From NCBI GenBank assembly GCA_963708255.1, contig CAVPSE010000005.1:94062-158061 (forward strand): 64,000 bases of DNA, in the 5' to 3' direction. A program made the translations under genes and the position numbers. The DNA comes from an uncultured Thermoplasmata archaeon (lineage in GTDB: Archaea > Thermoplasmatota > Thermoplasmata > Lutacidiplasmatales > UBA184). The notes beneath the pieces were generated by a model. It was not told where the DNA came from. It saw nothing but the letters and a program-made list of their open reading frames with translations, and did no database searches. Shown here in pieces: positions 34,467 to 35,544 of the stretch (within the stretch, counting starts at the first letter, position 1; each line of letters begins with the position of its first letter).

Positions 34467-35006
34467 ATGCCGTTCGAGCTCACGTTGCGGTACACGACGC
34501 CGCTGACGCCGATCTCGGACGTCGACGAGGTGCTCGAGGAGTTCCTCCGGATGGTGGGGTACCTCCCGGAGGGCGAGGACCACCGGGGCGGCGTCGGCCC
34601 GATCTCGACGACGCTGCCGTACCGGATGTTCCGGGAGTGCTTCCTTAGGGACCCGGCGAGGCCGTGGTACGCCGAGGAGCTGGTGGCGGTCCTGAAGACC
34701 TCCAAGCCCACCGTCTACCGACACCTCAACAAACTGAAGTCGCTCGACATGCTCGAGGAGGTGCCCGGGGCGGCCGACGGGAAGGGCCGAAAGGGCTATC
34801 GGCTCCGGTATGGCAACCTCGCCCGCGCCTGGGACTTCACGGAAGCGAACGCGACCAACGCGCTCCGACGGTACCGGGAGACGGTGGACCACTTGCAGAC
34901 CCTCCTCGAACGCACGCCTCTCACCCCCGGGCCCATGGCCCCGGTCCCGCCGGCCGCCGCCCCGGCGGCCAAGGCCGCTCCCAAGATCCGAGCTTCCAGT
35001 CGATGA
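34467..35006 (+). CDS. Winged-HTH transcriptional regulator
   Basis: EELVAVLKTSKPTVYRHLNKLKSLDMLEE. TTTTAT box at about 34434. Confidence 0.8.
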   Translation: MPFELTLRYTTPLTPISDVDEVLEEFLRMVGYLPEGEDHRGGVGPISTTLPYRMFRECFLRDPARPWYAEELVAVLKTSKPTVYRHLNKLKSLDMLEEVPGAADGKGRKGYRLRYGNLARAWDFTEANATNALRRYRETVDHLQTLLERTPLTPGPMAPVPPAAAPAAKAAPKIRASSR

Positions 35007-35308
35007 CGACCGAACTCCCCCCTCCGAAGAAGCCCGCCATCGCGCTGACCAACGGCTCGCGGATCCGGATCCGCTCGGCCGGGACCCGGGACGACGCCCT
35101 CGTCTCGACCGGCCTGTTCCGTGGCCTCGTGAGCGTCGGCGGCGACAACTCGATCGCCATCGAGCTCGGCGAAGGGACGAAGGAGGAGAAGGGCCTCGTC
35201 CGGCTGATCCCGCTCAACGCCGTGCTGGCGATCGATGTGCTCGAGGCGGCGAAGCCCGAGGAGGAGAAGCGGGCGGACCCCGCGGCCTCCCAGGCGTACT
35301 TCCGGTAG
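35003..35308 (+). CDS. Small beta-rich hypothetical protein (possible Sm/SH3-like fold)
   Basis: ATGA overlap with the regulator; G-F-G...IEL...RLIPLNAVLAIDVL. Confidence 0.65.
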   Translation: MTTELPPPKKPAIALTNGSRIRIRSAGTRDDALVSTGLFRGLVSVGGDNSIAIELGEGTKEEKGLVRLIPLNAVLAIDVLEAAKPEEEKRADPAASQAYFR

Positions 35309-35313
35309 TCGAA

Positions 35314-35415
35314 CGGGCTTGCTGGGAGTTCCGCCGACGGCCGGCGCCGTCGGATTCGAACCCAGGTCTCTGGCTTCGAAGGCCAGAAGGATAGTCCAAA
35401 CTACCCCACAAGCCC
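35314..35415 (-). tRNA. tRNA-Arg(TCG) with a 27-nt T-loop intron (35328-35354)
   Basis: Acceptor GGGCTTG/CAAGCCC, anticodon arm CTGGC-CTTCGAA-GCCAG. The T arm CTGGG-TTCGAA|T-CCCAG forms only after intron removal. TATA (AAATATAAG) about 25 nt upstream. Confidence 0.92.
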
Positions 35416-35544
35416 GCGGCGGTCGGACGGGTGCCCTTATATTTGGGAGTTCCCCACCGCGCCTCCCCTCACCTCCGGTGAGTTCGCCCGGTGCTCGGCC
35501 GGGGTGCGTCAGATACTACCTCCCCGGGGCCCACCCCTAGATTG

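Follow-up and report, generated by a model that had tools for sequence, protein, structure and literature searches.

A tRNA-Arg(UCG) gene on the minus strand of the window (the whole 64,000-nucleotide stretch of Lutacidiplasmatales DNA that was analysed) is confirmed, on the evidence of its sequence, as a genuine gene whose T-loop is interrupted by a 27-nt insert between nucleotides 59 and 60. The reading preferred here, to which a probability of roughly 0.9 is assigned, is that the tRNA gene is functional and that its insert is an archaeal intron of the protein-spliced kind, located at position 59/60, for which we infer cleavage within a ‘bulge-helix-bulge’ (BHB) motif.

According to the mechanism proposed for this gene, transcription would proceed from a conserved box located 22-38 nt upstream. 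In the resulting precursor the T-stem would serve as the outer helix, U54-U55-C56-G57 would pair with CGGA near the 3' end of the intron to form a 4-bp central helix, and the 8-bp hairpin of the intron would provide the inner helix, leaving the bulges AAU and ACU. A single alpha'2-like splicing endonuclease (EndA, encoded on another contig) would then cut after the second base of each bulge, the RtcB ligase would join the exons to yield the T-loop UUCGAAU, and CCA would be added after ligation. The exon half of such a motif would consist of the T-stem and the near-universal TTCR, so that nearly any tRNA could accommodate at 59/60 an intron with its own hairpin and with YGRR followed by two bases at its end.

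Structure and detection of the gene

The gene and its parts are as follows (all on the minus strand).

35437..35453, minus strand: promoter-like box, consisting of GGAAC, three bases and CAAATATAA, 22-38 nt upstream of the tRNA 5' end
35314..35415, minus strand: pre-tRNA-Arg(UCG) gene, 102 nt (75 nt of exons plus a 27-nt intron)
35355..35415, minus strand: 5' exon, 61 nt, standard positions 1-59, with a 3' terminus formed by CTGGG (T-stem strand) and TTCGAA (T-loop)
35377..35379, minus strand: anticodon TCG, as called by ARAGORN on the in-silico spliced form
35328..35354, minus strand: predicted intron, 27 nt, position 59/60
35314..35327, minus strand: 3' exon, 14 nt, comprising T60, the T-stem strand CCCAG, the acceptor strand CAAGCCC and the discriminator G

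The acceptor stem forms all seven of its seven pairs, and CCA is not encoded at the 3' end of the gene. The first-pass annotation had drawn the feature as 35314..35447, but the gene ends at 35415 and the stretch to 35447 takes in part of the promoter-like box.

When applied to the whole 64-kb window, ARAGORN called no tRNA, and a search with Rfam at its gathering score returned no match at this gene. The unspliced gene reached 28.1 bits with the Rfam tRNA model in permissive mode (against a cut-off of 29), in an alignment with a wrong 3' half built from intron bases. Thus, the gene is easily mis-called: ARAGORN and Rfam both miss it, and permissive Rfam misreads its 3' half, which bears out the warning in the first-pass annotation that it could be taken for a truncated tRNA. 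Deletion of 35328-35354 in silico caused ARAGORN to call a 75-nt tRNA-Arg(tcg) whose acceptor stem is 7 bp and whose T-loop reads TTCGAAT, and with the insert kept the same program called nothing. The minus-strand letters that had been read for the T-arm and insert match the sequence, and the proposed identity (Arg, anticodon TCG), the 27-nt size and the 59/60 site all hold under in-silico splicing, checks of the BHB motif and folding; the 75-nt cloverleaf expected after removal of the insert is the one that ARAGORN recognises in the spliced form.

The bulge-helix-bulge motif

The elements from which the motif would be built lie in the T-arm and the insert.

35357..35365, minus strand: exon side of the motif, with the outer helix strand CTGGG (35361-35365, T-stem) and the central helix strand TTCG (35357-35360, T-loop nucleotides 54-57)
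35354..35356, minus strand: 5' bulge AAT, with the predicted cut after its second base, so that A58 and A59 remain exonic
35334..35353, minus strand: inner helix of 8 bp (35346-35353 with 35334-35341), closed by a 4-nt loop (35342-35345)
35330..35333, minus strand: central helix intron strand CGGA, which pairs with TTCG and includes one G-U pair
35327..35329, minus strand: 3' bulge ACT, with the predicted cut after AC, so that T60 opens the 3' exon

Archaeal BHB motifs are cleaved after the second base of each bulge. The arrangement found here is that of the strict archaeal motif (hBHBh'), in that two 3-nt bulges lie on opposite strands with a 4-bp helix between them, the 5-bp T-stem forms the outer helix and the 8-bp hairpin the inner one, and removal of the sequence from bulge to bulge leaves a standard cloverleaf, as recognised by ARAGORN and as found in the orthologues of a sister genus (g15, described below). 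An inner helix of 7 bp with a 6-nt loop had initially been described; the strict geometry of the motif stands, and the helix can be extended to 8 bp with a 4-nt loop.

The minimum free energy fold of the T-arm and insert (35365-35322) contains the same elements (a 5-bp outer helix, a 4-bp central helix, an 8-bp inner helix with a 4-nt loop, and 3-nt bulges) at -25.3 kcal/mol, corresponding to a z-score of -3.7, and none of 200 shuffled sequences was as stable. When the entire 103-nt precursor is folded by minimum free energy, the acceptor stem and the hairpin of the intron are retained but the cloverleaf with the central helix is not formed; the TTCGAA of the anticodon loop pairs instead with the TTCGAA of the T-loop. 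Because folds of single sequences commonly miss tRNA cloverleaves, this result is weak counter-evidence.

A TCC repeat is present at both junctions in this genome, and cuts at any position from 59/60 to 62/63 would yield an identical mature RNA. Position 59/60 is chosen over 60/61 through 62/63 on the basis of the BHB cut rule and of the orthologues, among which those with a differing first intron base (A, T or C) are consistent with a 59/60 junction. The cut rule, the orthologues and the uninterrupted genes of genus g15 all place the junction between T-loop nucleotides 59 and 60.

Conservation among relatives

A DNA search of 40 relatives yielded full-length matches, insert included, in genomes of the same genus. 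The resulting same-genus set comprises 24 extracted sequences, all of them distinct (here and in the order-wide counts below, G019, which is the source of L008, G050 and G061 are flagged as unpublished genomes, and the figures that include them depend in part on these). The strict motif is present at this site in 21 of these 24 loci, and the remaining three (L008, L015 and L023) each depart from it by one mismatch. Across the set the insert varies from 23 to 34 nt; the 5' bulge is always AAA, AAT or AAC, with its first two bases being the exonic A58 and A59, the 3' bulge is ACT in all 24, and the intron strand of the central helix is CGGA, CGAA or CGAG in 23 (L008 has CGAC).

What is kept among these 24 distinct sequences is structure rather than sequence. 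With the bulges used as anchors, 120 of 120 cells are paired in the outer helix and 95 of 96 in the central helix, and the first six pairs of the inner helix are paired in 134 of 144 cells, with two to three pair types per position and exchanges between CG and GC. When the 3' partner was slid by one or two bases as a control, pairing fell to 22-62%. By this comparison of sequences, the inner helix covaries.

The survey was extended to an order-wide sample of 151 genomes, the present one included. A match at E <= 1e-8 was found in 142 of them, and in 134 the alignment runs over both exons and the insert, from the 5' to the 3' end; since the subject lengths in those 134 exceed 100 nt, an insert is required. 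Inserts in genera g16-g20 that were read directly measure 27-35 nt. The eight partial matches of the sample were also read directly. All four genomes of genus g15 carry an uninterrupted 75-nt Arg(TCG) gene with the T-arm CCGGG-TTCGAA-T-CCCGG, the loop being exactly as predicted from a cut after the second base of each bulge, and these genes serve as a naturally spliced control for the junction. In one g19 genome the insert is diverged and 35 nt long, two genomes of family f3 have, besides an intron at the canonical site, an insert of 11 or 13 nt at 59/60, and one genome of family f2 has an intact T-loop and approximately 215 nt inserted after the anticodon. No Arg(UCG) match at E <= 1e-8 was obtained in the other nine of the 151 genomes (six of genus g1, which are 68-93% complete, and three of family f2). 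Outside the order, four genomes from other orders of the class carry plain, intron-less Arg(TCG) genes (L025, L026, L027 and L029). The suggestion of intron gain, which had originally been made from the single sequence, is supported by this pattern of presence and absence among genera and families.

These comparisons bear on two further explanations for the insert. That it is an artefact of assembly or binning, as might be feared of a metagenome-type assembly in 6 contigs, has a negligible chance of being correct, given that an insert occurs at the same place in independent assemblies of 133 other genomes, of which 31 were read base by base. It is also very improbable that the 27 nt are retained in the mature tRNA as an extra T-loop hairpin: although the insert hairpin is stable (as judged from the fold of the T-arm and insert at -25.3 kcal/mol), its retention would lock T-loop bases 54-57 in a helix and block formation of a normal T-loop, and would make the exact 3-4-3 ends of the motif pointless, since they would never be cut. 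Moreover, the sister genus g15 functions with a plain 75-nt gene, and both EndA and RtcB are present.

An apparently sole gene copy with a conserved upstream box

A second call of tRNA-Arg(TCG), at C5:293712-293811 (minus strand), was rejected, as its acceptor stem and D-arm are those of the genome’s Glu(CUC); ARAGORN gives tRNA-Glu(ttc) for it once a 25-nt intron, with a strict BHB at the canonical site, has been removed. With that call re-typed as Glu(UUC), the gene in the window is the only Arg(UCG) found in the genome. (The spliced tRNA-Glu(UUC) has the anticodon loop CCTTCGA, and hence a C at position 33 where U is near-universal.) Under standard archaeal decoding rules, CGA codons require tRNA-Arg(UCG).

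The genome is scored as 63.7% complete, and a further Arg(UCG) copy could therefore exist in it. Among relatives, 141 of the 142 matching genomes in the order-wide sample have a single match and the remaining one has two copies, both bearing inserts, so that no uninterrupted paralogue is hidden there. As a separate matter, the score of 63.7% belongs to an assembly of 2.25 Mb in 6 contigs, compared with 90-100% for relatives of 1.6-2.3 Mb.

Upstream of the gene, at a distance of approximately 25-37 nt, the sequence (G)GAAC, followed by three or four bases and CCAAATA, is found in all 23 of the same-genus orthologues that have an intact 5' end. This box is conspicuous against these GC-rich genomes (the G+C content of the present one is 69%), and the combined GGAAC/CCAAATA element is probably the BRE/TATA promoter signature of the lineage. 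On the other side of the gene, most orthologues share a short motif, CGGAAGTA when read on the tRNA strand, at 10-30 nt downstream of the gene (35290-35313 of the window; L002-L023). It probably encodes the last codons of a convergent plus-strand ORF, 34664-35308, which stops 6 nt from the tRNA gene, and its recurrence points to conserved synteny at the locus.

Against the reading of a working gene could be set that of a pseudogene, in which an insertion has inactivated the tRNA. The failure of standard finders on the gene, together with the incompleteness of a genome in which another copy could exist, would fit such a view, and yet there is very little chance that it is right: 134 of 151 genomes carry the insert at precisely the same site, the pairing of the insert is kept despite differences in the sequence and length of its interior, the exons and the upstream box are conserved, and relatives in the order-wide sample have no uninterrupted second copy.

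The splicing endonuclease and ligase

For the spliced-gene reading to hold, the organism must possess suitable enzymes, and it encodes both a splicing endonuclease and an RNA ligase. One EndA gene was found in the genome (G000, contig C2, at approximately 1016.6-1017.5 kb), as an ORF of 292 amino acids with two PF01974 domains and one N-terminal PF02778 domain. Residues 15-276 align to the homodimeric enzyme of A. fulgidus (1R0V, 2GJW) with E = 1e-26. The protein has the composition of an alpha'2 enzyme, namely two tandem endonuclease units in one polypeptide, of which the C-terminal is the catalytic one, and the alignment indicates that this C-terminal unit retains the Tyr, His and Lys motifs. 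An RtcB ligase is encoded at C2:387909-389213 (568 bits).

Enzymes of broad specificity carry a specific loop (termed CSL or ASL). At the site into which the Crenarchaea-specific loop was engineered in the A. fulgidus enzyme 3P1Y, the present EndA has the wild-type A. fulgidus length, and its catalytic unit (residues 125-290) can be aligned to residues 4-169 of 1A79, from M. jannaschii, the only gaps being one or two residues long; judged by alignment alone, the protein shows no specific loop at the position that corresponds in 3P1Y and 1A79. Each of five reference genomes, including one of the same genus that is 100% complete, also has a single two-domain EndA gene and no other member of the family. 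The typing of EndA architecture that had been proposed as a check has therefore given a two-domain, alpha'2-like result in which the aligned site is free of a specific loop, and the enzyme of this genome is, in terms of its sequence, an alpha'2-like EndA.

Because no specific loop is seen in the alignment and the published rule limits alpha4 and alpha'2 enzymes to canonical BHB introns (PMC3239211, PMC4033280, PMC5829648), the activity of this EndA at the T-loop site has to be assumed. Since the intron has a strict BHB, its removal is not forbidden by the known recognition rule of the enzyme.

Other interrupted tRNAs in the genome and lineage

The survey of the genome’s other tRNAs that the first-pass annotation had recommended turned up 13 genes with an insert at 59/60, identified by two scans and explicit checks. 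The first scan relied upon strict BHB motifs, and reduced 126,435 motifs to 19 junctions positive in ARAGORN. Six of these are taken as real: Asn, Met-CAT (in the D-arm), Gly-TCC, Gln-CTG, Glu-TTC and Arg-TCG. A hit at His corresponds to a real gene in the wrong register. Ten junctions were set aside for their overlap with uninterrupted tRNAs (nine with the junction at nucleotides 5-8, plus Lys-CTT), as were Pro-CGG (C2:991451) and Leu-GAG (C2:1518149), for which the calls were an implausible 91 nt.

The second scan was independent of the BHB motif and consisted of deletions of 10-130 nt after T-loop position 59; it gave 65 deletions positive in ARAGORN, from which 13 genes were kept after checks of the acceptor stem, T-arm and BHB. 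A failed central helix or acceptor stem ruled out Trp-CCA (C5:7910), Gly-ACC (C2:626019) and Thr-GGT (C2:549503). Four calls made by ARAGORN only, with no Rfam match, were not counted: Pro-GGG (C2:1572451), Ser-CGA (C2:1649905), Pro-TGG (96 nt, C5:321637) and Arg-CCT (95 nt, C6:20817). A run of ARAGORN over the whole genome with unlimited intron length produced 81 calls with introns of up to 2352 nt, many of them absurd, and was dropped; ARAGORN runs with no introns and with short introns, and Rfam, were used in its place.

The 13 genes and the sizes of their inserts at 59/60 are as follows.

Arg-TCG: 27 nt
Arg-TCT: 31 nt
Asn-GTT: 33 nt
His-GTG: 32 nt
Asp-GTC: 31 nt
Gln-CTG: 34 nt
Glu-CTC: 29 nt
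Ser-GCT: approximately 31 nt (register corrected by eye from 33)
Ser-GGA: 33 nt
Ser-CGA: 30 nt
Ala-GGC: 33 nt
Gly-TCC: 30 nt
Lys-TTT: 35 nt, plus a second intron

The genes for His and Lys-TTT have no Rfam match and rest on the T-loop scan and ARAGORN. Six of the interrupted tRNAs have G57 and a fully paired central helix, and the other seven have A57, which leaves three central pairs and an A-G mismatch. A rough tally, which is approximate and combines ARAGORN, Rfam and the T-loop scans, gives 43 credible tRNA genes: 23 are uninterrupted and called by both ARAGORN and Rfam, five are interrupted by an intron at the canonical site or close to it (both tools call four of them, and only ARAGORN calls Trp), two have inserts in the D-arm or D-loop (Arg-GCG and a CAT tRNA) and 13 have inserts in the T-loop.

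Interruption at 59/60 extends to relatives. Eleven of 13 weak Rfam matches fetched from G041, a complete genome of the same genus, are tRNAs interrupted at this site, with isoacceptors as in the present genome, and the same is true of six of seven tRNAs fetched from G042, of genus g15, including an Arg-CCG that is uninterrupted in the present genome. At least four tRNAs of G026 (family f3) and at least three of G025 (family f2) have a 59/60 insert, one in each case having been recognised by eye. A genome from another order of the class (G039, locus L166) provides one case, a strict-BHB intron of 21 nt at 59/60 in Lys-TTT. The Lys(TTT) intron at 59/60 is also present in the genome studied here and in family f2, and could predate all other T-loop introns of the class.

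Introns at 59/60 are, as far as these gene sequences indicate, unusually common in this lineage. The supply of the exon half of the motif by the T-stem and TTCR would account for the interruption of many of its tRNAs exactly at 59/60.

Apparent intron turnover

The first-pass annotation had also invoked transposition as a possible origin of the intron, and this suggestion was not upheld. In local alignments scored against 300 shuffles, the interiors of the 13 introns proved no more alike than the shuffles: the best pair involving the present intron scores 18, a value reached by 105 of 300 shuffles, and the best pair overall (His-Glu) scores 25, which 12 of 300 reach. The similarity between introns of different tRNAs that marks transposition of the Thermoproteales type was not found among these 13 interiors, and what the introns have in common is where they sit and the ends that the T-loop imposes on them. 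Their sequences thus give no support to recent copying; older copying followed by drift is possible.

In a different account of its persistence, the intron is real and spliced, and is kept by selection because it splits the attachment site, running from the T-arm to the 3' end, of integrating elements. We regard this as unlikely, in that genus g15 lost or never had the intron with no visible consequence, and the presence and absence of introns among tRNAs resembles turnover.

Comparison with described systems

Introns at 59/60 are already in print, and the gene in the window adds another case; the lineage as a whole, as judged by its gene content, departs from published generalisations about endonuclease types. 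In the excerpts consulted, alpha4 and alpha2 enzymes are described as needing a strict 3-4-3 motif (PMC3239211, PMC4090602, PMC4033280, PMC5829648), and Euryarchaeota that have them as carrying few introns, at the canonical site only (PMC4090602, PMC4033280, PMC5829648). Non-canonical introns are said in the same material to accompany only (alpha-beta)2 enzymes, epsilon2 enzymes or the loop-sharing alpha2 enzyme of Korarchaeum (PMC3239211, PMC4033280, PMC5829648). The Euryarchaeota introns at 37/38, which are processed by an EndA of the A. fulgidus type (1R0V, 2GJW), resemble the present intron in their 3-4-3 motif and in the architecture of the enzyme, and differ from it in position: the anticodon stem and loop provide the exon half there, and the T-stem and T-loop do so here.

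The closest precedent for the position of the intron comes from ARMAN-2 (Ca. Micrarchaeum), for which the part of PMC3239211 used here reports 59/60 introns, missed by ARAGORN, in pre-tRNA-Pro(GGG) and pre-tRNA-Cys(GCA); the Pro intron has a strict hBHBh' motif, and the Cys intron a relaxed hBH motif that was cut in vitro. As far as that text goes, both systems have BHB introns at the same T-loop site, and the Pro intron is strict like the present one. The endonuclease of ARMAN-2 is described there as a three-unit epsilon2 enzyme with a specific loop and broad specificity, whereas the enzyme considered here belongs to the Thermoplasmata and is two-domain and alpha'2-like, with no insert where the loop would align.

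The closest precedent for the combination of enzyme and intron is found in Korarchaeum cryptofilum, described in the relevant portion of PMC4033280 as the sole archaeon with both an alpha2 endonuclease and non-canonical tRNA introns. By that description, it resembles the present case in joining an enzyme of the homodimer type to introns at non-canonical positions, but its alpha2 enzyme shares the specific loop, and the EndA studied here has the wild-type length at that site.

The reports of Sugahara in 2008 and Fujishima in 2010 are said to be the sources for the non-canonical introns of Thermoproteales and their transposition. Those archaea are summarised, in the passages drawn upon here, as having multiple non-canonical introns and as having undergone large-scale intron transposition (PMC4033280, PMC8450103). 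On the strength of those summaries, the likeness lies in the non-canonical interruption of many tRNA genes of one lineage, with gain and loss between relatives, and the difference in that the introns of Thermoproteales occupy many positions, are similar across tRNAs and are associated with an (alpha-beta)2 enzyme; nearly all non-canonical introns of the present lineage are at 59/60, with interiors that are alike only to chance level.

Among titles and abstracts, none was found on T-loop introns in Thermoplasmata, although the supplements of PMC8450103 and PMC5829648, or the EndA-type figure of the latter, may list cases; the paper on Lutacidiplasmatales (PMC9287336) never mentions introns. The intron had been described at the outset as ‘unusual for Thermoplasmata’, a view that stands when it is set against PMC4090602, PMC4033280 and PMC5829648 and that fails within this lineage, where such introns (in 13 genes of one genome) are the norm.

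Consequences for splicing and annotation

It is about an even proposition that the Lutacidiplasmatales, an order of soil Thermoplasmata, multiplied 59/60 introns under a single alpha'2-type EndA that shows no specific loop where one would align (with one case in another order, at least three to four in the other two families, six in the sister genus and 11-13 in this genus), the apparent rise of these counts toward this genus being a lead and not a result, since it rests on single genomes per group. If this EndA alone removes the 59/60 introns, the published rule would be incomplete, and a strict BHB would be sufficient at any position. The T-loop would then be a favoured landing site, at which the universal TTCR and the T-stem give the exon half for any tRNA, and the seven tRNAs with A57 and an A-G mismatch would show that EndA tolerates an imperfect central helix. 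The lineage offers a natural test of whether endonuclease type limits intron position, in the form of an enzyme of the narrow type together with many introns at one non-canonical site, and it displays gain and loss of introns between closely related genera, which would be usable for the study of how such introns arise.

For annotation, the consequence is that ordinary tRNA finders miss or truncate approximately one-third of the tRNA genes of this lineage. Because the interrupted genes are missed, these genomes seem to be without essential tRNAs, including, in the present case, the sole reader of CGA codons.

Inserts at other positions

Several inserts outside the T-loop were observed along the way. 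The tRNA-Arg(GCG) gene at C2:1220836-1220948 (plus strand) has a D-loop insert, and a similar one occurs in the same tRNA of family f3 (L153, G026); L133 of G041 is apparently the same Arg(GCG) gene, with a muddled ARAGORN call. In the CAT tRNA at C2:292710-292813, the D-arm is interrupted by a BHB insert of 38 nt. Loci L033, L034, L160, L162 and L165 of family f2 (from G025 and G029) have very long inserts after the anticodon, amounting to approximately 215 nt in Arg(TCG), and these inserts consist of repeated GC-rich hairpin units with a TACCGTAAGG-like core.
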